Source: a virus
Taxonomy: Duplodnaviria; Heunggongvirae; Uroviricota; Caudoviricetes
Strand: one strand, 5' to 3'
DNA length: 24,156 nucleotides
IMG/VR virus record: IMGVR_UViG_644736359_000007
Position numbers and translations under genes: made by a program. Below the pieces are notes generated by a model. It was not told the DNA's origin, did not search any database, and was given only the letters and a program-made list of their open reading frames with translations. Shown here piece after piece: positions 1,363 through 23,679 of the stretch (position 1 is the first letter of the stretch; each line of letters begins with the position of its first letter).

Positions 1363-1396
1363 TTAATTTCGATTATTTTTCCCGGATGGAAAATTC

Positions 1397-1439
1397 TTAG
1401 AAACCGATCACATACAGCTGCATTTATTAAGGTTATCAT
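1397..1439 (+). promoter_or_regulatory. Putative cyaR promoter: CRP-like half-site TCACA near -40 and -10 hexamer TATCAT (1434-1439)
   Basis: TATCAT ends 7 nt before the inferred cyaR 5' end at 1447; an imperfect CRP-type site (TAGAA-N5-TCACA) is centred about 42 nt upstream. cyaR is known to be CRP-activated; the site here is a weak match. Confidence 0.4.
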
Positions 1440-1446
1440 CCGTTTC

Positions 1447-1533
1447 GCTGAAAAACATAACCCATAAAATGCTAGCTGTACCAGGAACCACCTCCTTAGC
1501 CTGTGTAATCTCCCTTACACGGGCTTATTTTTT
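1447..1533 (+). ncRNA. cyaR: CyaR (RyeE) Hfq-dependent small RNA
   Basis: 87-nt sequence GCTGAAAAACATAACCCATAAAATGCTAGC...CCTGTGTAATCTCCCTTACACGGGCTTATTTTTT matches the E. coli CyaR sRNA as I recall it, ending in an intrinsic terminator hairpin (CCTGTGTAA/TTACACGGG) plus U-tract; located immediately downstream of yegQ as in E. coli. Confidence 0.85.
1507..1533. mobile_element. Prophage attL: P2-type att core (AATCTCCCTTACACGGGCTTATTTTTT) overlapping the cyaR terminator
   Basis: 27-mer is the reverse complement of the P2 att core AAAAAATAAGCCCGTGTAAGGGAGATT (from memory); a second copy with one mismatch lies at 23653-23679 next to int. Confidence 0.8.
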
Positions 1534-1596
1534 ACGCGTAATACAATGAAATAAAAGGATTTATTTCTGGTCACGTCCACACATTGACCACATCGA

Positions 1597-1623
1597 CAAA
1601 AAAGCCCCTCGACTGAGGGGCTT
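1597..1623 (-). terminator. Intrinsic terminator downstream of ogr
   Basis: On the minus strand: stem AGCCCCTC / GAGGGGCT with 4-nt loop followed by TTTTTT, 12 nt after the ogr stop codon. Confidence 0.6.
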
Positions 1624-1634
1624 CCTGTTTGTAA

Positions 1635-1853
1635 TTACATCCACATAATTTGCTGCCCTGACGGCAACGGGTGCGGTCTTACGGCGTGGACTTCTCCCGG
1701 CTTCACGATGTATCGCTGTACCGACTCATAAGTGATGAACGTGGCGCTGCAATTCACGTTCTGGCACTGATGATAACGCTCTTTTGTCGTGTCAGTGATA
1801 TAGCGGCTTGTACGCGCATGTGCGGCATGCTGGCATAAAGGACAATGAAACAT
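1635..1853 (-). CDS. ogr: Ogr, zinc-finger late-gene transcription activator (P2 Ogr / E. coli OgrK-like)
   Basis: 72-aa product MFHCPLCQHAAHARTSRYITDTTKERYHQCQNVNCSATF... with C4 zinc-binding cysteines; start taken at the internal ATG (1853) with upstream GGAAGAGG RBS rather than the longer track ORF (1916). Confidence 0.9.
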   Translation of the reverse strand: MFHCPLCQHAAHARTSRYITDTTKERYHQCQNVNCSATFITYESVQRYIVKPGEVHAVRPHPLPSGQQIMWM

Positions 1854-1934
1854 CGCGAGCACCTCTTCCGGTTTGGTTGATGGTGCCATTTTAGTTAAAT
1901 TATCCTTATAAAACAAACAGATAAAATAAAAACA

Positions 1935-2714
1935 TCACTCATCATCTTCTGTTTCGTACTCCACATCAGAAAGCCTGACCTCAAGCTCCAGGGACGTCGT
2001 GAAGCCGCTATTATTCAGAAAATGTGTCACCTTAGTGATTGTCCAGTCCTGCTCGTCTATGACGCGCTTAAAGCCTGACACTTTAACCGGTGTTTCCGTG
2101 TAAATATCAGCACGACCGGTAGCCAGACTGATGGAGAACTCCGCAACGCCCCGTTGCAGCTTATCCCACTTCGCCTGAGCGGCGCGCATGGCCTGCGCTT
2201 TCGTGGCATATACCGTGGTCAGGGCAAAAACGTTGTCAGCCTCACCGGCCATGTATTCACCTTCACGCGCTTCCGGTACTTTAGGCGCTTTCTTCTGCCT
2301 GACCGGTTTCGCGTTCGGGTGCTCCAGTGCGCGCAGGTGTTTCTCTTTCTTTTTGCGTTTCAGTTTTACCTTCTGCTTTTGCGGTTTCGGGTCTTTGGTG
2401 TGTAACCACTTTGCCGTTACGCCTGTATCGTCGCGCTGGTAAGAGCCTGCAAAACGAATCGGCACGGCATCCACACCGGTTGCGGCGTAAAGCTCCCAGA
2501 TAACCGAATCCGGGAATCCACCGAGCGACCACTCCATTGACAGCGCATCGTCATCAAGGCCGAGGTCTACCGGTGCGCTGCCGTTCATCCCCGCACCGCG
2601 ATAGTTTTCGAGCTTACGGGTCAGTTTTGGCAGCGTGACGGACTTTGCAACGCCCTGATAGCTGTAGCCGTTCAGAAAGACGTTCATTAACTTGAGTTTG
2701 CGCGGCATTGCCAT
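1935..2714 (-). pseudogene. Hybrid ORF: N-terminal ~95 aa of P2 tail tube protein FII fused in frame to the C-terminal part of tail protein D (yegZ-like remnant)
   Basis: N-terminus MAMPRKLKLMNVFLNGYSYQG... is the P2 FII start with a strong RBS (AAGGAG); after ...PIRFAGSYQRDDTG the sequence switches to a lysine-rich linker and a C-terminus (...FTTSLELEVRLSDVEYETEDDE) that I recall as gpD-like. Genes E, T, U and most of D are absent, consistent with an internal deletion. Confidence 0.65.
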
Positions 2715-2726
2715 CGGTCAGGCTCC

Positions 2727-3917
2727 TTAATTGCTGTTAACCGAGGTAACCAGACTTGCCAGGTATCTGGAAGTAATACGCTGGCGCAGGGTCAGGTTTT
2801 CGAGAGGAGGCACCGGGGTATAGTCGTAGTCGATATACAGTTTTCCGGCCTTGAGGGTTTCCGCATCATTGGCTTCTTCACTGAACCAGCATGTGCCATC
2901 CACGATATAACCGTTGTTTTTCAGTTCGCGGAATTTGGCATTAATGCCATCAATGATGTCACGAATCAGCGTTGCGGTAATTGGCTTATCAATAGCCCAC
3001 ATGTGCGCCTCGGCCATCGTGTCGGCCAGTACCTGCGCGGTGCGGGTGTAGCTTTCAAAGAGGAACAGCGGGTCATCAGAGCAGGTACGGTTACCCCAGA
3101 AGCGGAAGCCGTCGCGGCGAATCAGCGTAGTGATGCCTGACTCGTTAAGCAGGTCAGCATCAGTACCGGACTTCTGCAAATCCCAGAATACAGAGGCGCT
3201 GATGCCGGTAACACCATTTACCCCGACGTTGGACAGCGTTTTATGCCAGCCCTGCTCCTGGTCGATTTTGGCACGCAGCCCCAGCGCACGGGCGGTGGCA
3301 TACGCGGTGGCAGTGGTACTGGTAACCGTATCCCATGCGAGGAAATCCGGCCAGATGACCATCAGCTCACGCTGGCTGAAATTCTGACGGTAGGCTTTTG
3401 CCTCGGAAATGGTTTTACAGCCCCATGCGCTGATATACCCGAATGCATTCAGTTCCTGGCATACCGATGCCAGTGCGACGGCAACCTCTTTGGTGTCCAG
3501 CCCCGGCACACCAAGAATGCGCGGTTTAACGCCGGTAACCGACTCAGCCCCCATCAGGGCTTTCAGTCCGGTGTACTGACCGTTTTCGTCAGTGGTGCCG
3601 ATGATATTGGAAACGGTCTGCGCGAGTTTCGTTTCCTCGTCGTCGCCGGTGCCGTCTTCCACACGCACGACAACAGTGACCGGTTTTGACTGGTCGGCGA
3701 TAGCCTGCAACGACGCCGCCAGCGTGCCTTTTTTACCGGCCTTTGCAATTGCGCTCTGTACATTGGTAATCAGCACCGGTTTATTGACGGGGAAGGTTTC
3801 CGCATCCGCATCGCTGGCCGTGCAGACCATGCCGACAATGGCCGTGGATACGGTGGAAATGACGCGGGTGCCGTCGTTAATCTCCAGCACCTGCACGCCG
3901 TGATGATAGTCACTCAT
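2727..3917 (-). CDS. FI: Contractile tail sheath protein FI
   Basis: 396-aa product MSDYHHGVQVLEINDGTRVISTVSTAIVGMV... matches P2 gpFI from memory; start at ATG 3917 with GGAG RBS (8-nt spacer). The track ORF extends 50 codons further upstream without support. Confidence 0.9.
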   Translation of the reverse strand: MSDYHHGVQVLEINDGTRVISTVSTAIVGMVCTASDADAETFPVNKPVLITNVQSAIAKAGKKGTLAASLQAIADQSKPVTVVVRVEDGTGDDEETKLAQTVSNIIGTTDENGQYTGLKALMGAESVTGVKPRILGVPGLDTKEVAVALASVCQELNAFGYISAWGCKTISEAKAYRQNFSQRELMVIWPDFLAWDTVTSTTATAYATARALGLRAKIDQEQGWHKTLSNVGVNGVTGISASVFWDLQKSGTDADLLNESGITTLIRRDGFRFWGNRTCSDDPLFLFESYTRTAQVLADTMAEAHMWAIDKPITATLIRDIIDGINAKFRELKNNGYIVDGTCWFSEEANDAETLKAGKLYIDYDYTPVPPLENLTLRQRITSRYLASLVTSVNSN

Positions 3918-4387
3918 CCGTTTAACTCCGTGGTTAATGGGTGCAACTATTTTCTGTTGTGCGAAGCATGAGACGCTATTTGACCTGGCTGGGCAGTGGA
4001 TGAAACAACAGATAAAGAAAAAGTGGGCAACTTGCCCGCCTCTATTTATTGCGGTATACCCAGCCATTCAGGATTTGTTGCTACTCATAATTACCTGCAA
4101 AGAAACAAAGAAAAGATGAAAATACAAGCTGTCTGGTACAAAGAAATCCATCAGACTTCCAACACCCCATACATGTGCCCCCACCACGGTATGCTGCTCC
4201 GCTTCCCTTTGCGGATATTTTCTATCCATCGATTTTCAGCCAGGATATGCACGTGCGCGATGAAGAATGTCACACTACTATTGCCTTGTAAGCCCAGTTC
4301 CCGGTAAGAATAGCAACCAGCATCTGCGCTGCTACAGCACAAAGCGAGTGTATATTTGGGGGGAATATCCTTCATAAACTGTTCGAC

Positions 4388-4413
4388 GAAACCACGCTGT
4401 GGTTTCTCTTGTT
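4388..4413 (+). terminator. Hairpin plus T-rich tail (terminator-like) on + strand
   Basis: GAAACCAC-GCT-GTGGTTTC followed by TCTTGTT; no convincing upstream + strand gene. Confidence 0.35.
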
Positions 4414-4530
4414 ATCAAACCGAGTGGCATTATCACTAGTTTTACTAAATTACCAACTTCACTGTGAATGATATGCATGATAGAATCAGAAAATTAAATT
4501 ATACAGATCTTAATCAATTCCGCGTTTTAT

Positions 4531-4556
4531 GCCCGTTGCTTCCACGGGCTTTTTTT
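4531..4556 (+). terminator. Intrinsic terminator on + strand in ORF-free AT-rich segment
   Basis: GCCCGT-TGCTTCC-ACGGGC followed by TTTTTTT. Confidence 0.5.
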
Positions 4557-4651
4557 AAAAAATCACCTAAAATAAATAATTATATTCACTTTTATTCTAA
4601 TACAGAATAGAATATGAAATCGTCAATTTGTACCATTAATTTTCAAATCTT

Positions 4652-4681
4652 CCCCGCCTTCGAGAGAATGCGGGGCTTTTT
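4652..4681 (+). terminator. Intrinsic terminator-like hairpin on + strand
   Basis: CCCCGC ... GCGGGG stem with 12-nt loop followed by CTTTTT. Confidence 0.4.
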
Positions 4682-4829
4682 ACATGAGTACAACTTCACA
4701 TTAACTATTTTTATACTTATAATTTGCTTTGCTTAAAAATGTTCAAAATGTACGCCAACATATTTAATTATGCTGATTTTATCACCAACAAAACTATCAC
4801 CATGCAAACAATCCCTCGTGTTAGTTATA

Positions 4830-4845
4830 CTGCAATGCATTGCAG
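4830..4845. repeat. Perfect 16-bp palindrome CTGCAATGCATTGCAG, about 115 bp upstream of the leader ORF ATG
   Basis: Exact dyad symmetry seen directly in sequence; plausible binding site for a dimeric regulator. Confidence 0.9.
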
Positions 4846-4959
4846 CATGATGTGCTGATGACTTCATTAAATCATGTCACAATGTTCAGATATAATGCTT
4901 CATGTTATGAGATAGCATTCTGAATATTCATAAACATTATTAACGTTAGAGGTTGCATA

Positions 4960-5146
<187 letters not shown>

Positions 5147-5175
<29 letters not shown>

Positions 5176-6265
5176 TTGCCCTTATTATACTATAAAAGGC
5201 AACACTAAAAAAGAAAACATTTCATCTTCTGCTGTTTTAACAACAGCCCTGCATACTTCTCTTCTAAAAATCACAACGGTAATTAATGAAATTAATTCTA
5301 TTTATCCCTTTGATGTCTCAGTTGTTATTCCGGTTCACAACCGAGAAACCCTTATTCTCGAATGCATTAAATCTTTAAACAATCAGACTATAGATAAAAA
5401 TTGTTTTGAAGTTATTTTCATTGATGACTGTTCCACTGACAGGAGCATTGCCGCCATTGAATATAACATTTCGAGAGAAATAAATTATCGTATTATCCGT
5501 AGAGCAGTTGGTTCAGGGAATGCATCAGCGCCGCGAAATGAGGGAATAAAATCCGCAAAAGGTCGCTATGTGTTTTTCTTAGACTCTGATGATTCCATTC
5601 ACTCTGACTTACTGTCCGATGGTATTCAGATGGCTTATAAAAACAATAGTGACATTGTATATTTCAAGCAGGTTTCCTCTACAGGGAGAGGGGTTCCTGT
5701 ACGCCCATTTAAGGCAGACACGAATAAAGCAGATATTATAAAAAACCATCTTTTTAGATCATTAAAAATCTTCAAGTTCTTTAAAAGAGAGTTGCTAATC
5801 AATAACAACATCTTATTTAACCCATCAATTTCAGTCTATGAGGATATGCTTTTTTCTTGCCAGAGCCTAACTGTAGCTAATACGATATCTATACTGGCAA
5901 GAAAGGGCTACTACTCTCTGAATCGCCATGAAGAACCACATCTATCTAAAACATCTTTCTCCATTAAACAAAGAGCCTTGGTATTACAAACAGGTTTGAT
6001 TTATATCTTATCAAGCAATAAAAATGAAGCAGAAATAGTAAAAATGTTTAATGCATGGCTGGTTATTTGCGTTGAGCACTTGGCATCCATATTATCCAAA
6101 AAAAGTTTAACAACTAATGAGAAGTCTCACGTTTTTAACTTGATACATAAATCACTCTTACCATATACAGGGCTTGTAAATGAGTCCCAAATATATCCCG
6201 CACAAAGAGAGCTTGTCAGTTGCTTAATCTGTGGAGATTATTCTTCTTTTTGCGAAAAAATATAA
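5147..6265 (+). CDS. Family-2 (GT-A fold) glycosyltransferase
   Basis: Conserved GT2 motifs VSVVIPVHN, DDCSTD, APRNEG and FLDSDD in the first ~150 aa. There is no in-frame ATG: candidate starts are GTG 5147 or GTG 5153 (AGGTG RBS-like at 5143-5147), or ATG 4960 after a one-unit change in the AGCC tract. AT-rich, atypical for the prophage backbone. Confidence 0.75.
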
Positions 6266-6304
6266 AAACACTTAACTACAGATACTCCTAACTTTGTATC
6301 TGAC

Positions 6305-6334
6305 GCCCCTCACCCTAAATTAAGGGTGAGGGGC
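6305..6334. repeat. GC-rich inverted repeat (12-bp stem GCCCCTCACCCT / AGGGTGAGGGGC) followed by an A-tract
   Basis: Strong hairpin 40 nt downstream of the GT2 stop; flanked by A-run on the 3' side of the + strand, so not a canonical terminator for either strand. Confidence 0.5.
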
Positions 6335-6476
6335 AAAAAAAATAATTATTTGATGTTATATTTATATGCCATCACATCTTTTAACTCCAGTTGTTACGGG
6401 GAGGACAGTGACTCGTATCAACTAAAGTTTGATCTGTAGATAACACTATTTTAAGCAGATACTCATTAAGGCTTGT

Positions 6477-9335
6477 TTATTCTGAAGTCTCCAACTTCAT
6501 CAAACGACGATTTAAGTCAACAAAGCGTTCCATTAACAAATCCACCTGGCTGACAACAGCACGTAGACACCACCAGAGAAGCTCCTCTTTCCGGAAGCGA
6601 TAACGGCTTCCTGCTTCGGTTGCAGGGCGAACAAGAACCCTTTCCGCCTGTCGGGTAAGCACACGAGTTGTCCCGCTCAACAGCTCCCCTTCATCCGAAT
6701 AAATCGCTGGCTGAACCGGAATATCTTCATACTCTTCCGGTATATCTTCGTACTGTGCCTCCTCCGCTTCCCACGAATCCAGACAAAATGCGCTGTATTT
6801 CCGCCAGTCCAGACCGTGTTTCTCCATCACCGCTATCGCGGCCTGGACTGTCGGCCCGGCGTGCAGACGCGCGTCCTCGCCCTCCTCCTCAATTCTCTGT
6901 AACCAGCGCCACACGCCCGGAAGCCGTGCTATTTCTGCAAATGCCGCGTTTTCGGCTGCCGTCGCATCGCGCGGTGTATCCTTTAACGTCGCATCCGACA
7001 CAACGGTCGGCGAGTTGCAGAGATACACGCTCCGGAACGCTTTGTTGGGCGCACCCAGGTCGCTGGTATTGTTAACCGATGGCCGGAATGCACCGTTAAT
7101 ATCTGTATCCATCTGCATGAATGCAGTGCCGTCACTACGGGCTGCAATTACATAAGCGTCAGCAGAATCGTCATAAATACCCAGATTCCCGGCTGTTGAT
7201 ACCTGGAAAGCTCCCGCCTTCAGCGTGGTGCTGATGGCCATGCGCTTCTGGGTTTCGTCATCCGATTTAATATTCACGCCCTGCAGGTATGCCACATTCC
7301 AGCGATTTGGCGATGACCCCAGATTCATTGCCTTGTCCTGGTCGGGATGAAATGCCGGCGAGACCGGACTCAATAATACAGACCAGGTCTCACTGCCATC
7401 GGTACAATAAAGCCTTGTGCGCCCCGCCGACTGAGTATCGTTCATTGAGTAAAGGTTAATCCCGCCACCGCTCAACAAATCCACGTCAGCGCGTATTTCC
7501 AGACAATCGTGCACGGTGTTCAGTCGGTGTTTCCACTGAACGAAGCGGCCTGTGTATTCTCCGGTTCGGAACGCATCCCCGTACAAACGAAAAACAGCAG
7601 CAGAAGTGTCTGTATCCGGAGCCTCCTTTCTGACCTCAAATAACGGGCGATGCGAGCGCAGATTCTGCTCATAGGCTGCCACCTGGAAGTCTTCATTGGG
7701 TGACAGGGCAATATTTACAGCATTGGGACTCAGAAAAAGGCTAGCATGGCTGTCAGGAAACGCCACGCCGGAGTCCACCAGATAGCCTGTGCCGTCGTAA
7801 GCCTCCACGGAAACCACAGCTTTGCTGCGTTTTGTCGCCACGCCACACGTATAAGACTTCGTGGCATCATATTTCGTTGCAGCCGCCGTTCCATATGCTG
7901 TAGGCGTCCAGTAAGATGGATTCACCGGGGAACGGCCAGAAAAATTTGTTGCACGTGCTGCAAAGTATGCCCCCTCAAAAGAAACCACATCTGCTGTCTG
8001 ACACCAGAAATCCATATCGAGCAGATACAGTTTTCCGTTATGAAGAGCCAGCCCTTCGGCTTCCTGCAAAACGGGATACCCCAGCTCTGCATTCCCCAGC
8101 ATTTTCTGGCGGCCATACCTGGCACGAACGCCATCCACATTGAACTGTCTGACAACTTCGCCCGTTGACAGGTTATATACAACAATGCGGTGAGTCAGAA
8201 ATACGCCTGTATAACCGTAATAAGCAAACAGATAATGACCATCGCTGGCCATCCCCTGAAATGCCTGCGACACCATTGACTGGGTGGACAGATAAATCCG
8301 GTGTTTAAACGTCAGAGAAGCGCGATCGAAAACATAAACTGTGCGGCGGTCATCCCTGTTGTAATGAAGATGGACGGCTTCATTACTTGACTGAACAATC
8401 AACAGGCTTCCGTCTACCGACAATGCCACCGTTATAATTTCATCCCCGGTAAAAAAGTCAGAGGTGAAAATCTCCGTACGGGTGACATCTGTCAGACTGG
8501 TGTCAGCCCCATTCCAGTTGATGATATTCACACCCTTGCCGTCAGCGGTCGGGGTATACAGCATCACGCGACCGTCTTCACATACAGCCCCGATACTCTG
8601 GTGACCAATATCAGCGAAAACGGGAGAAAACGAAATGACCGTCGGGTTTTCGTTTTCTCCGTCAGGGTTAAATGTCGTTTCAACAATCCTTACGCCACCC
8701 GATACAGGCTGATGCAGAAACATTCTGGTTCCCTGCGGCGTATCACAGATACAGAACCCCTGACTCATATTATCCGCACCGTCAAAAATCCCGGCGTAGT
8801 CAATATCGTGGACAACTTTATGCTGAAGAACCACATCATCAATGACAGTACGATGAAAACTGGATATGGCTTTATCGACGTAATCCTGCGTCGCCATCAC
8901 CGTGCTGGCATCAATACTCAGCTCAACAGACGCCACGTTACTGACAATAATAACCATGCGGCAGGTCTGCGCACGCCCGGAGCCTTCAGCCAGTTCAGGC
9001 TTATAGCTTTCTACCATGTTAGCGACCGCAATCAGTGTTCCGGCATCGTCATACAGACCAAGTTCACGCATCCAGAAGCCGCCCACTTCTGGCGGTACAA
9101 CCAGTTCAGCCACGATATAGTTTTTATTCTTGTTATCCACGCTGACTTTATTCAGGGCGTGACGCCAGACCTCATGCACCAGTTTCGTCTGACCAGCATC
9201 CGGCACCGGCAATTTGCCATTACCGTCACCCACGGCCATTGCAGACAGGGTTACTTTTTTCCCGCCGGGGACAGTGGCGGCTGCCAGCTTTGCGGCTCCG
9301 GCAGTAGTGATAACGGTTTTAAATTTCGTGCTCAT
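6477..9335 (-). CDS. H: Tail fibre protein (P2 gpH-like N-terminal anchor domain with a divergent, longer distal region)
   Basis: N-terminal ~150 aa (MSTKFKTVITTAGAAKLAAAT...WRHALNK...GGFWMRELGLYDDAGTLIAVANM...) matches P2 gpH from memory; 952 aa versus 669 aa in P2; positioned directly after gene I as in P2. Confidence 0.8.
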   Translation of the reverse strand: MSTKFKTVITTAGAAKLAAATVPGGKKVTLSAMAVGDGNGKLPVPDAGQTKLVHEVWRHALNKVSVDNKNKNYIVAELVVPPEVGGFWMRELGLYDDAGTLIAVANMVESYKPELAEGSGRAQTCRMVIIVSNVASVELSIDASTVMATQDYVDKAISSFHRTVIDDVVLQHKVVHDIDYAGIFDGADNMSQGFCICDTPQGTRMFLHQPVSGGVRIVETTFNPDGENENPTVISFSPVFADIGHQSIGAVCEDGRVMLYTPTADGKGVNIINWNGADTSLTDVTRTEIFTSDFFTGDEIITVALSVDGSLLIVQSSNEAVHLHYNRDDRRTVYVFDRASLTFKHRIYLSTQSMVSQAFQGMASDGHYLFAYYGYTGVFLTHRIVVYNLSTGEVVRQFNVDGVRARYGRQKMLGNAELGYPVLQEAEGLALHNGKLYLLDMDFWCQTADVVSFEGAYFAARATNFSGRSPVNPSYWTPTAYGTAAATKYDATKSYTCGVATKRSKAVVSVEAYDGTGYLVDSGVAFPDSHASLFLSPNAVNIALSPNEDFQVAAYEQNLRSHRPLFEVRKEAPDTDTSAAVFRLYGDAFRTGEYTGRFVQWKHRLNTVHDCLEIRADVDLLSGGGINLYSMNDTQSAGRTRLYCTDGSETWSVLLSPVSPAFHPDQDKAMNLGSSPNRWNVAYLQGVNIKSDDETQKRMAISTTLKAGAFQVSTAGNLGIYDDSADAYVIAARSDGTAFMQMDTDINGAFRPSVNNTSDLGAPNKAFRSVYLCNSPTVVSDATLKDTPRDATAAENAAFAEIARLPGVWRWLQRIEEEGEDARLHAGPTVQAAIAVMEKHGLDWRKYSAFCLDSWEAEEAQYEDIPEEYEDIPVQPAIYSDEGELLSGTTRVLTRQAERVLVRPATEAGSRYRFRKEELLWWCLRAVVSQVDLLMERFVDLNRRLMKLETSE

Positions 9336-9345
9336 TGTTTCTCAC

Positions 9346-9876
9346 TTATCCGGGATAAACAGTAATAACATCACCATCACAGACCACACCGCCTGTATAC
9401 AGATAGCCGGGAATGTCCTGGATAATGTTCAGACCGATAAGGTGGCGACTTGCGGGTTTGGCATCGGCAATCAGCCGTTCCATTTCCAGATACATCTCCT
9501 CCGTGATGCCGCTTTCCAGTACGCCGATATCAAGGCGGAAGGTTCCGGGCGGGTCGTTTGTCTCCCACCATTCCTTTACGTTAATTAGATAGCCTAGCGG
9601 CTCCACCACACGCCGGATTGCACCTATAGTGCCTTTATGACAGTGGATGAAATACGCATCGCGGATAACGGCGCGTTTTGTCGCTTCCGGCCACTTTTCA
9701 TCCCATCTGTCGACCGAAAACGCCCACGCCAGCCACGGCAGCAGATTTGCCGGGCAGGTGTCCGGGTTCCACAGCTCACGAATACTGACCGGTGTTTTTT
9801 CAATTTCCGCACAGGCTTTTGCGGCGGCGACCTCAAGCGGTGATGAGCCGGTCGGCAGCAGTCGCGAATCACTCAT
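9346..9876 (-). CDS. I: Baseplate assembly protein I
   Basis: 176-aa product with P2 gpI length and sequence character; gene order J-I-H conserved. Confidence 0.85.
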   Translation of the reverse strand: MSDSRLLPTGSSPLEVAAAKACAEIEKTPVSIRELWNPDTCPANLLPWLAWAFSVDRWDEKWPEATKRAVIRDAYFIHCHKGTIGAIRRVVEPLGYLINVKEWWETNDPPGTFRLDIGVLESGITEEMYLEMERLIADAKPASRHLIGLNIIQDIPGYLYTGGVVCDGDVITVYPG

Positions 9877-10777
9877 CCGAGCCTCCGGTCACGACGCGGT
9901 ATTCAGTACAGAAAGACGCCTGCGTGCTGTTAAGCACGATATCGGCCAGCGGTGCAGCCAGTTCGACACGCTGCACGCCTTCCACATGCAAAGCGGCATA
10001 AATGGCAGACAGACGGATGTCGCGCCCCAGCCGGTGCTGTGCCGTGATGTACGCTTCCAGTTTTTTCACGGCAGCAGCGCGGATGGGTTCGCTTTCGGGA
10101 CCAGGGTAAAGGTAAAGCGTGGCGTTTATCTGGTATTCAACAATGGCGGCAGACTGCACGGTCACGCGGTCGGCCACCGGTCTGACGTCCTCGCCATTCA
10201 GGGCGTTACGCACCACCGCCAGCAGGTCTTCGGATGCGACACCGTTATTCTCACGTGACAGCACAGAGATGGTGACGCAGGCCGGAGACGGACTGGTGAC
10301 AGAGATATCCGCGACACGCCCGTCAGCACTGCGACCATGATACTGATAGGCACCCACCGACCCGGCGACGCTTAAACCTTCAAACGCCTGCTGAATACGC
10401 AGACGATAATCGGTATCAGATTCCATCACTGCCGGTGTCGGCGGGATAGTCGAATTATCTGCCGGGGTGATAGTCAGACGCGTGGTGTTGTAATTGGCAC
10501 CAATCACATCAAGGTCATTACCCGCGGCACAGGCCAGCATCACCGCCCGTGCGGCCTCATTCACACGCTGACGCCAGATAAGCTCACGATAAGCATTTTC
10601 CTCCAGCAATTTGACGAGAGGCTCGGATTCCAGCGTCAGGGTACGGGCGACCGCCTCCTGCTGGGCTTCCGGGTAAAGGGAAATCAGTGTCGCCTTGCGT
10701 TCGGCGAGAATGGTTTCAAAGTCCAGCTCCTCGACCACATCCGGTGCGGGTAGCTGGTTCAGGTCGATAATCGGCAT
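9869..10777 (-). CDS. J: Baseplate assembly protein J
   Basis: 302-aa product (P2 gpJ length); 8-nt overlap with I as in P2. Confidence 0.85.
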   Translation of the reverse strand: MPIIDLNQLPAPDVVEELDFETILAERKATLISLYPEAQQEAVARTLTLESEPLVKLLEENAYRELIWRQRVNEAARAVMLACAAGNDLDVIGANYNTTRLTITPADNSTIPPTPAVMESDTDYRLRIQQAFEGLSVAGSVGAYQYHGRSADGRVADISVTSPSPACVTISVLSRENNGVASEDLLAVVRNALNGEDVRPVADRVTVQSAAIVEYQINATLYLYPGPESEPIRAAAVKKLEAYITAQHRLGRDIRLSAIYAALHVEGVQRVELAAPLADIVLNSTQASFCTEYRVVTGGSDE

Positions 10778-10781
10778 GGTT

Positions 10782-11129
10782 TCAACTCACAGGGATGGTT
10801 AACGAAAGTGGCTGGCCGGTGTCGTTGTGCTGGCCGGTTAAGGTGACCGTCATTCGCCCGTCAAAACTGCGCTCAGTGGTGACGGATGACAGGGTGACGC
10901 GGGGTTCCCATTTCAGCACCGCCATGTAACAGGCGACCTTAATCTGCAACTCAAGCGCCGGGGTCTGCGGCTGGTCAATCATTGACGCCAGCAACGAGCC
11001 GTAATCACGACGCATCACCCGCGAGCCGACCGGTGTGCGCAGGATATCGCCGATACTCTGGCTGATATGCTCAAGGTCAGTGACAGTCAGGCCATCACTG
11101 CAATTCATTCCGAGATAACGCGCTGTCAT
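10782..11129 (-). CDS. W: Baseplate protein W (gp25-like)
   Basis: 115-aa product (P2 gpW length); position between V and J. Confidence 0.85.
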   Translation of the reverse strand: MTARYLGMNCSDGLTVTDLEHISQSIGDILRTPVGSRVMRRDYGSLLASMIDQPQTPALELQIKVACYMAVLKWEPRVTLSSVTTERSFDGRMTVTLTGQHNDTGQPLSLTIPVS

Positions 11130-11761
11130 AGAGGGCTCCCGGTTGTGCCGCCGCTGTCGCCGGGGTGTTTATGGGTATGCAGTACCTTACCGTTTGATGA
11201 GAGTTCACCGCCGGTGTGTTCAATGTTGCCGCGCATCGTCCCGCCCTTCTGCACTTCCAGCGTGCCGGTAATCAGCCTGTTGGTGCAAACCACCTCCGGT
11301 GTGTCCAGGGTGACGCGGGTTGATGCTTTCACCATGACCACCGGCACCGTGGCAGTAACAGAATCAGAAGCCGTCACGCTGGCCGTTTTAATTCCGCTTA
11401 CCGTGAGTGCACTGGTTTCGGGTTCATACTCAATCACCGCCCCGTCAGGGAAACGGATATGCAGGGCATCCGCCGACGCAGACGGCGCGGGGTTATCGCC
11501 GGAATAAATCCCCGGCAGAACGAACGCCGTGTCGAGTTCACCGCCCACAGCCAGAATCAGCACCTGTTCCCCCACGGAAGGTGCCCACCATGTGCGCGAA
11601 CGTCCGGCACGATGGGTCAGCCACTGAAGCCAGTCAGTGCACATGCCACCGGTCTGCACACGGCAGCGACCGGCTTTAAGGTTGGTTTCGACGACAAGGC
11701 CGGTACGAATCATGTTGCGCAGTGCGCGCGCGAGTTCCTGAATATTTGCGAGAGTGTTCAT
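11126..11761 (-). CDS. V: Baseplate spike protein V
   Basis: 211-aa product starting MNTLANIQELARALRNMIRTGLVVETNLKAG...; start chosen at ATG 11761 to match P2 gpV; ATGA-type overlap with W. Confidence 0.85.
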   Translation of the reverse strand: MNTLANIQELARALRNMIRTGLVVETNLKAGRCRVQTGGMCTDWLQWLTHRAGRSRTWWAPSVGEQVLILAVGGELDTAFVLPGIYSGDNPAPSASADALHIRFPDGAVIEYEPETSALTVSGIKTASVTASDSVTATVPVVMVKASTRVTLDTPEVVCTNRLITGTLEVQKGGTMRGNIEHTGGELSSNGKVLHTHKHPGDSGGTTGSPL

Positions 11762-11778
11762 GCGTGTGAGATTGCACA

Positions 11779-11827
11779 ATATATAAAAGTTATGCTATCT
11801 GGATTCATTTGTAGAACGACCATACAA
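11779..11827 (-). promoter_or_regulatory. Putative Ogr-dependent late promoter upstream of V (dyad TTGTA-N9-TACAA plus downstream -10-like TATATA)
   Basis: Partial dyad resembling the P2 late-promoter TGT...ACA element about 25 nt upstream of an AT-rich -10-like hexamer. Spacing differs by 1 nt from the consensus I recall. Confidence 0.35.
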
Positions 11828-11844
11828 CATTCGAGGAGAGCGTA

Positions 11845-12630
11845 ATGTTCAGTGATAATGTGACTAATGCGTGGTGGTTTATCTCTTTGTATCTATTTTT
11901 ATTAATAGCATTAACATTTATTACCTTTGGTAAAAGTAATCTTATGAGGTTTATTGCACATCATTTCAATTTTGAGTATTCAGACAGAAAGTTAAAAATG
12001 CTCGACAAAAAATGGCGCGACATTCAACTATTTAAAATAATTAACGGAATCAATGTATCAGGCATCGAAGATGTGAGAATGATACAGCAGGGGCTGATTG
12101 ATGGAAAACTAAAAACATCGTATTTTTTTCTTACTCGCTTCTGGGGTGACATAACAAAACCACCACACATAATTAAAACAATAATTGTAATTCTGTCCAG
12201 CATTATTTATATTCTCTTCGCATGTTATATACACAACAAACAATCCGCTATAGTAAGAGATGCCATAGGCATACCATATAAAAATATGATGTACTATGTT
12301 TATAGTGACAAAGTTCTTTTATCCTTCAACAATAAAACAGTTGAATTCAATAAAACTTATAGCCTTGCCGATTGCAAGAGGCTACGAAACATATTTATAA
12401 AAGACACACTTCCTGAGATCGCCTGCAATAAGCTCTTACAGCTAAACGAGGAGGACTCGGAATGGTTAAGTCAGGAAATTAAAGATAATAACAGCCAAAA
12501 AAAAGCATTATTAATAATATCCCTCATCTATTTCATTTCAGGTCTGGTTATATTCCTGTCATATACAAAATTCCTTTACGCCAATAAGAAGGTTGTAGAA
12601 TACAAAGCATCAAATAAAAATCACTCATAA
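11845..12630 (+). CDS. Hypothetical membrane protein (three predicted transmembrane helices), AT-rich cargo gene
   Basis: ATG with strong GAGGAG RBS; 261 aa with hydrophobic segments AWWFISLYLFLLIALTFITF, IIKTIIVILSSIIYILFACYI and ALLIISLIYFISGLVIFLSY; lysine/asparagine-rich; no homolog recognised. Confidence 0.6.
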   Translation: MFSDNVTNAWWFISLYLFLLIALTFITFGKSNLMRFIAHHFNFEYSDRKLKMLDKKWRDIQLFKIINGINVSGIEDVRMIQQGLIDGKLKTSYFFLTRFWGDITKPPHIIKTIIVILSSIIYILFACYIHNKQSAIVRDAIGIPYKNMMYYVYSDKVLLSFNNKTVEFNKTYSLADCKRLRNIFIKDTLPEIACNKLLQLNEEDSEWLSQEIKDNNSQKKALLIISLIYFISGLVIFLSYTKFLYANKKVVEYKASNKNHS

Positions 12631-12635
12631 GCCTC

Positions 12636-12672
12636 TAAACATTGAGCGACCAGCATGGCCGCTCAATGTTTA
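12636..12672. repeat. Perfect 13-bp inverted repeat (TAAACATTGAGCG ... CGCTCAATGTTTA) with 11-nt loop between convergent coding regions
   Basis: Seen directly in sequence; lies between the membrane-protein stop (12630) and the stop of the minus-strand fragment (12692); possible bidirectional terminator or rearrangement scar. Confidence 0.5.
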
Positions 12673-12694
12673 ATTGCGCATCAGCCTCTGCCTG

Positions 12695-12955
12695 GATAAA
12701 ACTAACGCTCAAGGTGAGCCAGGATAATCTCTTCAATCATCTGCACATCCTCACCGGTAAAGCCGAGCAGAGGACGCGCCGGATAATCAATTTTCTTACC
12801 GTCTTTCCGGGTTTCTTCCGACAGACCGAACTGATGCACACTGGCGATTTTCGGCGACTTTCCCAGCAGGATTTCAGCCGCTTTGTGCTGGATTTTCTGG
12901 TGTTCGGTAATGCGTTTCTGGAAAAGCGTTACAGCACCACCGGTAAGGTCATCAG
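12695..12955 (-). pseudogene. Orphan 3' fragment (87 codons) of an unidentified gene on the minus strand
   Basis: Minus-strand frame translates to GFQSDDLTGGAVTLFQKRITEHQKIQHKAAEILLGKSPKIASVHQFGLSEETRKDGKKIDYPARPLLGFTGEDVQMIEEIILAHLER-stop using preferred E. coli codons (CTG, CCG, GGT, CGT), whereas the overlapping + strand track ORF uses rare codons (AGG, CGG, ATA, CGA); no start codon; bounded upstream by an in-frame stop at the junction with the Q fragment. Confidence 0.5.
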
Positions 12956-12958
12956 ACT

Positions 12959-13616
12959 GGAAACCTCACCGGCAAAATATACCCGCCGTGGCGTGGAGGA
13001 GGATGTTTACTGGTGGGTGCCGTCCTTCAACGAACCGACAGCCTTCGCGCCCGGTTCCGTGTTTCACCTGCTGGAGCCCGATATTAATCAGGAGCTGTAC
13101 GGCCTGCCGGAATATCTCAGCGCCCTTAACTCTGCCTGGCTGAATGAGTCGGCCACGCTGTTCCGCCGCAAGTATTACGAAAACGGCGCACATGCCGGAT
13201 ACATCATGTACGTCACTGATGCCGTGCAGGATCGCAACGATATCGAAATGCTTCGCGAAAACATGGTGAAGTCGAAAGGCCGCAACAACTTTAAAAACCT
13301 GTTTCTCTATGCCCCACAGGGAAAAGCCGACGGCATTAAAATTATCCCGCTCAGTGAAGTGGCGACGAAGGACGATTTTTTTAATATCAAAAAAGCCAGT
13401 GCCGCAGACCTGCTGGACGCGCACCGCATCCCCTTTCAGTTGATGGGCGGCAAGCCGGAGAACGTCGGGTCGCTGGGTGATATTGAGAAAGTGGCAAAGG
13501 TCTTTGTCCGCAATGAGCTTATCCCGTTACAGGACAGGATCCGTGAGATAAACGGCTGGCTCGGTCAGGAGGTCATCCGCTTTAAAAACTACTCACTGGA
13601 CACTGACAACGGCTGA
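12959..13616 (+). pseudogene. Q: 3' fragment of portal (capsid vertex) protein gene Q
   Basis: C-terminal ~219 codons (…GLPEYLSALNSAWLNESATLFRRKYYENGAHAGYIMYV…RFKNYSLDTDNG) with good codon usage, ending next to cos as P2 Q does; the 5' ~125 codons and upstream gene P are absent. The 324-aa track ORF begins at a TTG and its first ~105 codons are non-coding read-through. Confidence 0.65.
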
Positions 13617-13620
13617 ACAT

Positions 13621-13644
13621 CGCCGCCTGCGGGCGGCTTTTTTA
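13621..13644 (+). terminator. Intrinsic terminator after Q
   Basis: GCCGCC-TGC-GGGCGGC hairpin followed by TTTTTTT, 5 nt after the Q stop. Confidence 0.6.
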
Positions 13645-13784
13645 CACCCCGTCATCACGCCCTCACACGCTCACCACCGCACAAAACACCCCGCAGACAC
13701 ACCAACGCCCCGGCGCACAATCTAAACGCCATCACGACGCGCTGAGACGCTAAAAAATAAAATCAGCACCACCGCCAGCGCGCA

Positions 13785-13803
13785 GTGCTTTCCCCGCCTC
13801 GCC
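13785..13803. other. cos site (19-nt P2-type cohesive end sequence)
   Basis: GTGCTTTCCCCGCCTCGCC is the reverse complement of GGCGAGGCGGGGAAAGCAC, the P2/186 cohesive end as I recall it; located between Q and the old/tin position as in P2. Confidence 0.7.
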
Positions 13804-13931: not shown

Positions 13932-15902
13932 TTAAAGGTCATCAATTAAACCTAAAGGCAAACCATCCTCACCAACCGAGCTATAATGAGCGATAATATT
14001 CGAAAGTTCACCAGTAGAAAACGAATTAGGCAAATCATTATCAACTAATATAATCTGGCACGGAACATTTTTTCTTTCTGCTTTTTGAACTGTATTCAAT
14101 AGTTGCTCATAAATATTTTGATACTTCATCGGGTCTGACATCCCCTCAAGGTCATCCTCGACTGCAAGAGTTTCTTTTGAGTATTTTTCCTTGGTCTGTT
14201 TCCCTAAATATTTACCAACCGTATCAAATATCAAAAGTAAAGGATGGTTAACATTATGGTCTATTGCATAATCAAGAATAGACAAAAGATACCCAATAGA
14301 AGAAATAGTTCTCAAACCTCCGGACGTTATTTTAAAATATTCCTTTCCTCTTATAACAGGGGTGTAATATCTTTCAGAGATTTTTATCCCCGTTCTGTTT
14401 TTGATATTAATACCCTTCAAATACTGACTAAATCTATCACCTAAACCTTGTAAAATGCCTTCCATACTAGGTGCGTTTTTCTTTAACGCATCCAAGCGTT
14501 CAGTTAATGTTTCAATATCTTTTATCAGTACCTGATGCTTTTCAAGCAGTTCCTCTTGCTGGTTTCTAACCTTCAAATCTTTTACTAACTGCTCCCTAAC
14601 CTTCTCGTTTTTTGATATCTCTTTAATATAAAAATCTCTCTGAGTCAAGAATGGTGTAATCATTGACTGGCTTTCTTCGTCAATTAACTCTCTCAACTCG
14701 TCAAGTTGTTCATCTAATTCTTTTTTATAACCAGATTCTTTTTTTAATTTAAATGACATTTCTGAGATCATGTCATTAATATTTCGTCTACGTCGACTAA
14801 GTGAATTCAACTCTTCATTAAGATCTTTTTCTGATGAAATTTCAAATGGAAAATCGGAATCATCTATTTTAATGTGGCTATCACAGATCGGACAGGAAAA
14901 TACTTCCTTATCCAATACACCAATGCGAGAATTTGCTGTTTTAATCGCTTTGAGTTTTTCAATATCATTATCATAGTCATTTTTTAACCGCGAATATTTA
15001 TCAATCTTATCCTCAAGCGTGCTAATATTTAATATGCACTCCTTGTATTTAAGCGAAATAAAATTGTGGGCATCTTTCAATTCTGTATACTGCATGGAAT
15101 CCGCTTTCATATTTTTATCGAGAGCAGACAAACCTGCAACAAGTTCTTCTAAAATAAGATCTATCCTATTAATCTCATCATCAATTGATTCAATTGTTTC
15201 ATAGTCTGTATCGCGAAGAAATTCAGATATTATCTGATACTTCTTATTTAGTTCCGTTACTAAACTACTTTTTGCAGATATTTCACCTTGGAGTCTGGCG
15301 ATGCTTTCATCCAACACATTGAACATGTATTTAAAAACTTCTTTCGTAAATGCGTAACGGGACCAATCCTCCAATCGTAAGAATGATTTACTACCAATAT
15401 CATCCTGACTTACATAAACAAATTTATATATATTTCTAAAGCTTAACCTGCGCATCTGTGAATGTGCTTTAGAAGGAGACACCTTAATTTCAATTTTTGG
15501 AAAATTAAGACTATCAAGTAAAAACTCCGAAAAAACGCCATCAACATTTGATAAGGGGCTATAATTAGGAGCGTATTTTTTCGGAAAGTGTTTATGTAAA
15601 TCATCAAACTTACAACGATAAACTTCTATTGATTTTTTATGATCATAGATATCTCTTACGATTGTGAATACAGTATCATTGATCACTACTTCAAGAGCAG
15701 CATAGTTTACTGATGTTTTTATTTCATCTGCTAAATCTATAGAACTAGCACCTAAAAGATAATTAATAAACTCCAGAATACTTGACTTACCTGTGTCAGA
15801 GTCTCCGTAGATAACATTGAGACCTTTATAAAAAGTAGTGACGTAGTTTTTACGAACGCCAACAAGAATCAAACTATTGATATTGAGATATGATTTCATC
15901 AT
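13932..15902 (-). CDS. Rad50/SbcC/SMC-like ABC ATPase with central coiled coil and CPxC zinc-hook motif (candidate LmuB-like)
   Basis: 656 aa; Walker A GDSDTGKSS (about 15781-15807); long heptad-like charged region; CPICD near the middle (about 14878-14892); ABC signature ITSGG (about 14311-14322); Walker B HPLLLIFD (about 14221-14250). AAGGAG RBS; start ATG 15902 or 15899; ATGA overlap with the upstream gene stop. Confidence 0.7.
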   Translation of the reverse strand: MMKSYLNINSLILVGVRKNYVTTFYKGLNVIYGDSDTGKSSILEFINYLLGASSIDLADEIKTSVNYAALEVVINDTVFTIVRDIYDHKKSIEVYRCKFDDLHKHFPKKYAPNYSPLSNVDGVFSEFLLDSLNFPKIEIKVSPSKAHSQMRRLSFRNIYKFVYVSQDDIGSKSFLRLEDWSRYAFTKEVFKYMFNVLDESIARLQGEISAKSSLVTELNKKYQIISEFLRDTDYETIESIDDEINRIDLILEELVAGLSALDKNMKADSMQYTELKDAHNFISLKYKECILNISTLEDKIDKYSRLKNDYDNDIEKLKAIKTANSRIGVLDKEVFSCPICDSHIKIDDSDFPFEISSEKDLNEELNSLSRRRRNINDMISEMSFKLKKESGYKKELDEQLDELRELIDEESQSMITPFLTQRDFYIKEISKNEKVREQLVKDLKVRNQQEELLEKHQVLIKDIETLTERLDALKKNAPSMEGILQGLGDRFSQYLKGINIKNRTGIKISERYYTPVIRGKEYFKITSGGLRTISSIGYLLSILDYAIDHNVNHPLLLIFDTVGKYLGKQTKEKYSKETLAVEDDLEGMSDPMKYQNIYEQLLNTVQKAERKNVPCQIILVDNDLPNSFSTGELSNIIAHYSSVGEDGLPLGLIDDL

Positions 15903-16264
15903 TTCTCCTTGAAGACTTTGTTTATAACAGAGTTTAACTTAGAGGTAGGCAATGCTTGTAGCGGTAACAATGCTTCGGCTAGTCGTTTTATTTCTTTAAA
16001 ATATCCATCAGTCAATGAGCTAGCAAATTCCTTACCTTTTTCAGATAAAAATAATTTAACACTCTCATTATTTTTTTTCTCAGCTGAGAGCAATCCCCGC
16101 AATGACATAATTTTTATAAGATATTTCACTTTGGAATTGTCGAATAAGATATCTACATTTGATGAAAAACTCTTTATTGTATAAGTTAACTGGGACTCGA
16201 CACAAGCAGGCTTTTTCCCCGAAACTGTAAGAGCACAATCAATTTTTGATGGATTTTTTATCAC
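15899..16264 (-). CDS. Small hypothetical protein encoded between the hydrolase and the ATPase (candidate LmuC-like accessory)
   Basis: 121-codon ORF (GTG start at 16264; alternative ATG at 16108 would give 70 aa); stop overlaps the ATPase start (ATGA), indicating translational coupling; AT-rich. Confidence 0.5.
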   Translation of the reverse strand: MIKNPSKIDCALTVSGKKPACVESQLTYTIKSFSSNVDILFDNSKVKYLIKIMSLRGLLSAEKKNNESVKLFLSEKGKEFASSLTDGYFKEIKRLAEALLPLQALPTSKLNSVINKVFKEK

Positions 16265-16399
16265 AGATACATAAAAATTTGTATTTTATTAATATCTAAT
16301 GACAACACTCCTTTTTTACTATGAGATAATATAGATATAGCAATGGCAAGCATAGCAAAATTCAAACTATACTCTTCATCAAGAGGTATATACGGCAAG

Positions 16400-17623
16400 T
16401 TATTTTTCTTCATGATTACCTCGCCGTAATTGCTCCAAAGTTTCTACGCTGGTTTCAGATGACCAGACAATATCCCTGTCATTTTTGTTAGCCAGTTGAT
16501 GCAACATTCCTTTCTTATGTATCGTTTCCAAACTTTTTATAAGAGAATCTAACGACGACTTATCCTCCTGGGTTATTCGTCTATGAACAGCAGCAATAAA
16601 TTTATCTGGGGAAATTGAATTTGCAATGTATTGCTCATACTCTTCCTGGTAAATCTCCCTTATTTTAGAATACAAATGACCAAGTTGTTTTCTATCGTAA
16701 TCACTCGTAAAAATATTTCTCGCAAGCTCAGCATTATAATAATATTCCTTTGCATGCAGAGCGATATCCTGATGTATATCTGCGACAATCATTTTTAAGA
16801 CGAAATACTCATTATCATATTGTTTATCATCAGAAAAACGCTCAACGCAAATCTTCTTGGGTGCTTCTAAATTTATCTGCTGAATAAATTGCTTTACCGC
16901 AACAAACACTGTAGACGAGCTATTTTCGGGCTTGCAAATTGAGCTATGCCCTTCATTAACTGCAATTGAGTTATGTCGTTCACTATCCATCGGTAATGCG
17001 CTTTTTTTATCGACTATAGTGTCATGAGATCCATAAACATATCTAGTGATAGGAAGTTTTTTGCTACAATTTATCCAGCGCCTATTCAATGTATCAGTCG
17101 CTTCACTTAACAATCCAAGATCTACTAACTGAGCATTTGAAGATACCATTGAAGTTATATTCGCTAATTTAGCACCAAAGTGAGGGACTGCTAACGAAAT
17201 GAATCCAATTATATTAGATTGTTCCTCATGCTCAACTTTTTTTAGAATTAGATTTTTTGATATTAACCCCCCCATACTATGGGCGATTATTATAATTCGA
17301 GAGTAATCACTTAGTGTTACTCTAATCTCAGTATACAATAACTCAGCTATTTCATCAGTTGGTAAATTTCTCTCTAACTTATTTTTCTTAAAGAAAATAC
17401 GAGCCAAGAATCCTGACGTTTTAGCATACGTTTGTGTGAATTTAGTAAAATAATTGAAACATGCAATATCAAATACGTTGCTAATATCTTCATCTTCTGC
17501 TAATAGTTTTGGAAATGAAATTTCTTTATTAAAGTTCCATGTTTCCAAACCACCATTTAATCCATGTACAAATAGTATCAGGCTATCTTTTTTCTCGTGG
17601 CTTATCCATTCAACCATGCTCAT
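16400..17623 (-). CDS. Alpha/beta-hydrolase (lipase/esterase-like) domain protein with a C-terminal helical domain (candidate LmuA-like effector)
   Basis: 407 aa; N-terminal LILFVHGLNGG and nucleophile-elbow IIIAHSMGGL (GXSXG-type, about 17267-17284), then candidate Asp (GSHDTIVD) and His (NEGHSSIC) in Ser-Asp-His order; C-terminal ~160 aa charged/helical; sigma70-like promoter (TTGTTT-N16-TATACA) just upstream. Confidence 0.7.
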   Translation of the reverse strand: MSMVEWISHEKKDSLILFVHGLNGGLETWNFNKEISFPKLLAEDEDISNVFDIACFNYFTKFTQTYAKTSGFLARIFFKKNKLERNLPTDEIAELLYTEIRVTLSDYSRIIIIAHSMGGLISKNLILKKVEHEEQSNIIGFISLAVPHFGAKLANITSMVSSNAQLVDLGLLSEATDTLNRRWINCSKKLPITRYVYGSHDTIVDKKSALPMDSERHNSIAVNEGHSSICKPENSSSTVFVAVKQFIQQINLEAPKKICVERFSDDKQYDNEYFVLKMIVADIHQDIALHAKEYYYNAELARNIFTSDYDRKQLGHLYSKIREIYQEEYEQYIANSISPDKFIAAVHRRITQEDKSSLDSLIKSLETIHKKGMLHQLANKNDRDIVWSSETSVETLEQLRRGNHEEK

Positions 17624-23652: not shown

Positions 23653-23679
23653 AATATCCCTTACACGGGCTTATTTTTT
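23653..23679. mobile_element. Prophage attR: P2-type att core copy (AATATCCCTTACACGGGCTTATTTTTT, one mismatch)
   Basis: 23 of 27 positions form an identical run with 1511-1533; directly follows int. Confidence 0.75.

Follow-up and report, generated by a model that had tools for sequence, protein, structure and literature searches.

A probable internal deletion scar between the S and Q gene remnants of the defective P2-like prophage of Escherichia coli B

The P2 gene map and the prophage at the cyaR site of E. coli B

In phage P2 (NC_001895), the genes S (8915-9367, forward strand) and Q (187-1221, complement) are natively located on opposite strands. The P-Q genes on the complement and the genes O through S on the forward strand diverge from the promoters pP and pO, which are found at about 3000-3130. 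For E. coli, a published table (PMC3032704) contains the entry 'P2*B' for strain B REL606 at the cyaR site and the entry 'ogr-D'' for K-12 at the identical site. In the literature on P2 Hy dis and on the defective prophage of E. coli B, no description of the junction treated here was found, and the element is named only in this table.

The window analysed in this study, i.e. the whole stretch of 24,156 bases, is a part of the E. coli B chromosome (99.9-100% identity, e.g. to strain B NZ_CP115178.1, ATCC 11303 and AS19) and extends from trhP/yegQ (1-1362) into yegR. The sRNA gene cyaR is located at 1445-1530, and its 3' end overlaps one of the two direct copies of a 27-bp att core which flank the prophage (1507-1533 and 23653-23679). 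The cyaR site between yegQ and yegR and the identity of 99.96-100% to E. coli B records were both found, and the element can be identified by its sequence as the known defective P2-like prophage P2*B of Escherichia coli B, inserted at cyaR between yegQ/trhP and yegR. The P2 Hy dis recombinants (Cohen 1959) are reported to derive from this prophage. In BL21(DE3) the site is empty, with one 27-bp core between yegQ and yegR and no prophage, which corresponds to the precise loss of the element of about 22 kb. This single core indicates that the element can still be lost precisely.

According to the RefSeq annotation, the prophage begins with ogrK, D (partial), FII (partial), FI, a glycosyltransferase gene, H, I, J, W and V. 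These genes are followed by a hypothetical gene, S (partial), a portal gene (partial) and a three-gene ABC-three-component system, and finally by A, several small early genes, cox, the repressor gene and int. The junction between the two partial genes S and Q in the middle of this order is the subject of the following analysis.

The remnants of S and Q and the junction between them

A frame on the minus strand is open over 87 codons (12705-12965, stop codon at 12702-12704) and ends with ...IILAHLER, which confirms what an earlier note on this DNA had stated from codon usage. The S fragment within this frame matched the Pfam family Phage_tail_S (PF05069) with 67 bits (cutoff 24.3, E = 2e-18, profile positions 78-148 of 148), and blastp aligned the frame to residues 92-150 of gpS, with one substitution in comparison to the S tail of P2. 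At the DNA level, positions 11700-12863 are 99.8% identical to phage P24A7b and positions 5114-12864 are 99.9% identical to an intact prophage (L005, strain Z0117EC0062, yegQ-yegR site), both of which are close relatives of the true parent phage and not its ancestor. This homology mapping showed that only the last 52-53 or so of the 87 codons derive from S. The remnant (S', 12702..12860, minus strand) comprises codons 99-150 and the stop codon of the tail-completion/virion-morphogenesis gene S, as indicated by PF05069, blastp, the collinearity with P2 up to 9206-9209 and the PGAP label 'phage virion morphogenesis protein, incomplete, missing N-terminus'. The synteny is of the P2 type, as the O-operon terminator, orf30 and V come next beyond the 3' end of S'. 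Full-length members of the gpS family comprise about 150 amino acids and possess their own start codon; S' breaks off at the position of P2 9206-9209, and the N-terminal 98 codons are deleted together with the promoter pO. Judged by these features, S' is to be regarded as a pseudogene fragment which represents the C-terminal third of gpS, and it would not be a functional member of this family.

The first 34 codons of the minus-strand frame (12864..12965) lie antisense to the remnant of Q. Here the DNA is that of Q, 99.6% identical to the intact Q of L005, and the minus-strand frame is no remnant of a gene and is open by chance. In a codon model derived from the phage genes of the window itself, the antisense frame at 12864-12965 reached 0.506 bits per codon and the true Q frame 0.572 bits per codon. 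Because the antisense frame scores nearly like the true Q frame in codon usage, the fragment was overextended by about 95 bp in the first reading. Coding on the minus strand, as proposed there, was consequently retained for the S-derived codons and discarded for the antisense part, and the meeting point, which had been placed at about 12956, was shifted about 95 bp further to the left. As a methodological caution, it should be kept in mind that the strand opposite to a real gene can mimic a coding sequence in codon usage.

On the plus strand, the remnant of the portal gene (Q', 12858..13616) comprises codons 93-344 and the stop codon of Q, as shown by Pfam, blastp and PGAP, in which it is labelled 'phage portal protein, incomplete, missing N-terminus'. 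The match to the Pfam family Phage_portal (PF04860) amounted to 50.3 bits (cutoff 39.1) and started at residue 79 of the open reading frame. In blastp, the Q' protein was 100% identical to residues 93-344 of the L005 protein and identical in 251 of 251 positions to residues 93-343 of P2 gpQ. Since codons 1-92, gene P and the promoter pP are lost, Q' lacks the complete N-terminus of gpQ and can no longer be transcribed from pP together with the terminase gene P. By its sequence it belongs to the gpQ family, yet it falls short of the full length and can be classified as a pseudogene.

As the earlier note had correctly pointed out, the gene tail adjoins a portal gene which is truncated at its 5' end, and the only long open reading frame called in the region is located on the plus strand (12642-13616). 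This frame of 324 amino acids is chimeric: 72 codons which run across a terminator hairpin and antisense to S' are fused in frame to Q codons 93-344. The blastp match to gpQ begins at residue 73 of the frame, which corresponds to residue 93 of Q, and the first 72 codons showed neither a portal match nor any homologue in blastp. The minus-strand fragment, in turn, has a clear homologue, and the rearrangement as such, which the earlier note had proposed, therefore stood.

The breakpoints were determined from three-way alignments with P2, P24A7b and L005, which placed the deletion junction at 12858..12863. The BLAST segments overlap at 12858-12863/4; the homology to S ends at 12860-12863, and that to Q begins at 12858. 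In the parental state, the S side reads GGCGACTTCCCGCCG and the Q side GTGGCTTTCCCAGCAGG, and the product reads GGCGACTTTCCCAGCAGG. Both parents overlap exactly in CTT (12858-12860) and, if one extra T is allowed, in CTT(T)CCC. Filler DNA, an IS element and a recombinase-type repeat were all absent from the junction alignments. The flanks are collinear with and oriented as in P2 and L005, and a short homology is shared without inserted bases, as is expected for a short-homology deletion. An IS-mediated deletion was rejected, since the alignments to S and Q leave no unaligned bases. An assembly artefact was likewise rejected, since 10 complete assemblies under separate accessions show an identical junction.

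In comparison to L005 the missing segment has a length of 8,267 bp, and in P2 coordinates (about 943-9208) of 8,266 bp. It contained S codons 1-98, R, lysC, lysB, lysA, K, Y, X, L, M, N, O, the pO/pP promoters, P and Q codons 1-92. In L005, the genes S, R, lysC, lysB, lysA, K, Y, X, L, M, N, O, P and Q are present between the breakpoints.

The features on both sides of the junction are retained in the P2 arrangement. To the left, gene V for the baseplate spike (11126..11761, minus strand; Pfam Phage_base_V, Phage_spike and Apex) is intact and forms the start of the retained V-W-J-I-H tail operon; it is collinear with V of P2 and was annotated by PGAP as 'phage baseplate assembly protein V' (strain B locus 12467-13102). 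It is followed by a homologue of orf30, a non-essential moron of P2 (11845..12630, plus strand, 261 amino acids, about 31% GC), which occupies its usual position between V and S. For this homologue, neither a Pfam match above the cutoff nor a PADLOC match was obtained. It is predicted to be membrane-associated, with hydrophobic stretches at the N- and the C-terminus, and it is kept between V and S in many P2-type phages. Downstream of S, a palindromic hairpin (12636..12672) matches P2 9397-9433, the putative rho-independent terminator of the O operon. Its fold energy was calculated as -23.3 kcal/mol on the plus and -30.5 kcal/mol on the minus strand, with z-scores of -4.4 and -4.7, respectively. 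To the right, the intrinsic terminator tQ after Q (13622..13637, plus strand; terminator scan, -14.4 kcal/mol; P2 tQ 160-181) and, just past Q', the equivalent of cosL, the left cohesive end of P2 (13785..13803, aligned to P2 1-19), are both retained.

Origin of the arrangement and competing explanations

It is most probable, at a level of about 0.96, that a single internal deletion of about 8.3 kb in the defective prophage of E. coli B left its scar here, and no observation speaks against this deletion. In phages of the P2 type, the P-Q operon and the O-N-M-L-X-Y-K-lysABC-R-S operon are divergent, with the 5' ends of Q and S facing each other across about 8 kb. Illegitimate short-homology recombination or replication slippage between CTTCCC in S and CTTTCCC in Q might then have removed all DNA in between. 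As the outcome, S codons 99-150 on the minus strand would have been placed head to head against Q codons 93-344 on the plus strand. A microhomology-mediated mechanism can be suggested only tentatively, because three exact bases are close to the chance level at any junction.

The distribution of the junction is narrow. The 401 bp which span it were detected in 10 of 5,426 complete E. coli genomes, in all cases with 100% identity to the window, and none of the phage records extended across it. Among the ten carriers, nine bear the name of E. coli B, ATCC 11303 or a B derivative; the remaining one, a record of 4.61 Mb labelled 'strain C', is presumably a mislabelled B strain. About 1,630 other complete E. 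coli genomes possess the S half or the Q half only. Owing to this confinement to 10 of 5,426 genomes, the scar can be considered a private marker of one laboratory lineage.

Several other explanations have to be weighed against the single deletion. The earlier note had assumed that P2 has no gene in minus orientation ending at this position, and it had therefore considered a deletion/inversion scar, an inverted piece of P or M, or a fragment of a foreign gene. This assumption did not hold, as S and Q of P2 are natively opposed and S' lies in its normal place. An inversion, alone or in combination with a deletion, which flipped the fragment of a morphogenesis gene to face Q, would agree with the head-to-head meeting of the fragments, and this meeting does appear odd if all late genes are assumed to be co-oriented. 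However, P2 itself carries Q on the complement and S on the forward strand, neither flank is reversed with regard to P2 or L005, the gene order is kept, and inverted repeats or recombinase sites are not needed. Since S and Q are already opposed in P2 and in the intact relative, one deletion suffices and an inversion is unnecessary; the latter is extremely improbable, and of the deletion/inversion scar the deletion was upheld by the collinear flanks. The fragment also is no inverted piece of P or M, since it represents the C-terminus of gpS beside orf30 and V. That it is instead a piece of a foreign, non-P2 gene inserted beside Q might be proposed in view of the AT-rich moron directly to its left (the orf30 homologue, 11845-12630), by which foreign DNA is indeed nearby. 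At the DNA level, however, the fragment agrees to 99.8-99.9% with S of P2-type phages. Orf30 and V follow it without interruption as in P2, it matches Phage_tail_S, and the probability of a foreign origin is practically negligible.

A gap which grew by two or more successive deletions, i.e. a stepwise decay of which the junction records only the last step, is unlikely, although successive nested deletions would be indistinguishable from a single event. The presence of an independent second deletion (FII' to D') in the same prophage is in line with it. On the other hand, none of the 5,426 complete genomes shows an intermediate with one of these breakpoints, a single event is the more parsimonious assumption, and the 100% identity of the Q' protein to that of the intact relative suggests little time for a stepwise erosion. 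A different question is whether the plus-strand frame at 12642-13616 is a real, expressed gene for a portal fragment with a replaced N-terminus, which might for example interfere with incoming P2-like phages. The frame is open across the junction, it is located downstream of orf30 on the same strand, and its Q-derived part is undegraded. In contrast, its TTG start codon (12642) sits within the stem of the strong terminator hairpin, which separates the frame from orf30; a promoter scan of 12541-13616 yielded no sigma-70-like hit, and pP is deleted. In addition, the first 72 codons consist of antisense S and intergenic DNA without a homologue, and PGAP annotates a pseudogene. Expression of this frame is thus very improbable, and the chimeric frame is probably no gene. 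Even more doubtful is the special case that small amounts of it are formed when transcription reads through the orf30 terminator, and that it acts as a dominant-negative portal fragment against the head assembly of superinfecting P2-type phages; if this were true, it would provide a selective reason for the undegraded state of Q'. As both S' and Q' lack start codons and the promoters pO and pP, the two remnants left by the deletion are most likely dead, unexpressed pseudogenes.

Consequences, cargo genes and comparison with related prophages

The deletion between S and Q is one of two in this prophage. The second junction (D' to FII', 2414-2428) shows an exact GTAT within a match of 13 of 15 positions and corresponds to a loss of 4,321 bp relative to L005, by which the 3' end of FII, E/E', T, U and the 5' end of D were removed; PGAP annotates both flanks as partial pseudogenes. 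The prophage retains int, cox, the repressor gene, A, cos and the cargo genes. Going by its gene content, it is devoid of all head, packaging and lysis functions and of several tail-completion genes. The promoters pO and pP with their Ogr-type activator site were also removed by the deletion between S and Q. As a consequence of both deletions, the prophage would form no particles and would not lyse its host. A function as a tailocin or a domesticated tail module was rejected, because the prophage lacks X, R, S, E, T and U and has only truncated forms of FII and D.

The junction is a textbook deletion of prophage decay in a long-known defective prophage, and both partial pseudogenes are already contained in RefSeq/PGAP. 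The value of its analysis lies chiefly in a correct annotation, i.e. in a base-level record of one of the two deletions which disable the P2-like prophage of E. coli B. The 'orphan gene tail' and the open reading frame of 324 amino acids are artefacts of the deletion junction.

Beside the remnants, the prophage carries cargo genes. A small open reading frame (about 4959-5113) and a glycosyltransferase frame (about 5147-6265), both on the plus strand, form a gene pair at the position of P2 G and Z/fun. A perfect tetranucleotide repeat, (CAGC)n, is located at 5114-5141 inside the small open reading frame (DFTASQPASQPA) and immediately upstream of the family-2 glycosyltransferase. The window contains 7 copies of the repeat, E. 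coli B CP115178 contains 35 and L005 contains 20. From the match spans in 28 genomes, copy numbers of about 7 to 86 can be estimated, and the values among the window and the ten genomes sharing the junction include 7, 10, 21, 34, 35, 45 and 59. From frame arithmetic, the small frame is fused to the glycosyltransferase if n is divisible by 3. In line with this, a single glycosyltransferase CDS is annotated in several records with n = 18, 21, 45, 60 or 66, and in most others a 'hypothetical protein' and a glycosyltransferase. The repeat looks like a phase-variation switch of the simple-sequence-repeat type known from Haemophilus, here on a prophage cargo glycosyltransferase in E. coli, and a literature search revealed no description of a (CAGC)n switch. 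Among the by-products of this analysis, the repeat upstream of the glycosyltransferase is most worth a separate study.

The tail-fibre gene H (6477-9335, minus strand, 952 amino acids) presumably encodes a protein which is much longer than P2 gpH. After H, no tail-fibre assembly gene of the G type is annotated, and the glycosyltransferase pair is found instead; the apparently intact L005 shows the same layout. In the cargo hotspot between cos and A, which corresponds to old/tin of P2, a three-gene Lamassu / ABC-three-component defence system is located (13932-17623, minus strand). It comprises LmuB, an SMC-like ATPase of 656 amino acids (PADLOC E = 1e-233), LmuC/MC4, and LmuA with alpha/beta-hydrolase (DUF676) and CTD8 domains. 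Due to a CA insertion of 2 bp (16262-16263) in comparison to E. coli B CP115178, the lmuC/MC4 frame has 121 amino acids in contrast to 170 in strain B, and its PADLOC match spans only profile positions 48-166. Lamassu may be inactivated in the strain from which the window originates, or one of the two sequences may contain an error.

Compared with its closest relatives, the window agrees best with the strain B chromosome, to which it is 99.96-99.97% identical over the whole element, apart from the length of (CAGC)n. Strain record CP115178 differs by 5 substitutions, lacks the additional CA of the window at 16262-16263 and has another number of (CAGC)n copies, whereas no difference exists at the junction; in strain B and ATCC 11303, the 401 bp across the junction are 100% identical to the window and the pseudogene calls are alike. 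P2 shares the neighbours (V, orf30 and the terminator beside S', tQ and cosL beside Q') and their relative orientations. The identity to P2 amounts to 92.8% for the S'-bearing segment (11700-12863 including the orf30 homologue, P2 10369-9206) and to 96.6% for the Q'-bearing segment (12858-13803, P2 945-1), and P2 positions of about 943-9208 are missing from the window. The intact prophage L005, an example of the complete P2-like prophages that other E. coli carry at this att site, resembles the B prophage in the integration site, in 99.9% identical tail genes and in the cargo of orf30 and the glycosyltransferase. In contrast to the B prophage, it retains the 8,267 bp from S to Q and the 4,321 bp from FII to D, and next to cos it possesses a DUF7380 gene in place of the Lamassu-type system.

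The ogr-D' remnant of E. coli K-12 is likewise a decayed P2-type prophage at cyaR according to the published table (PMC3032704), and going by this table alone, only ogr and a fragment of D are left. In comparison with this remnant, the prophage of E. coli B retains about 22 kb, including int, cox, a C-type repressor gene, A and the genes V through FI.
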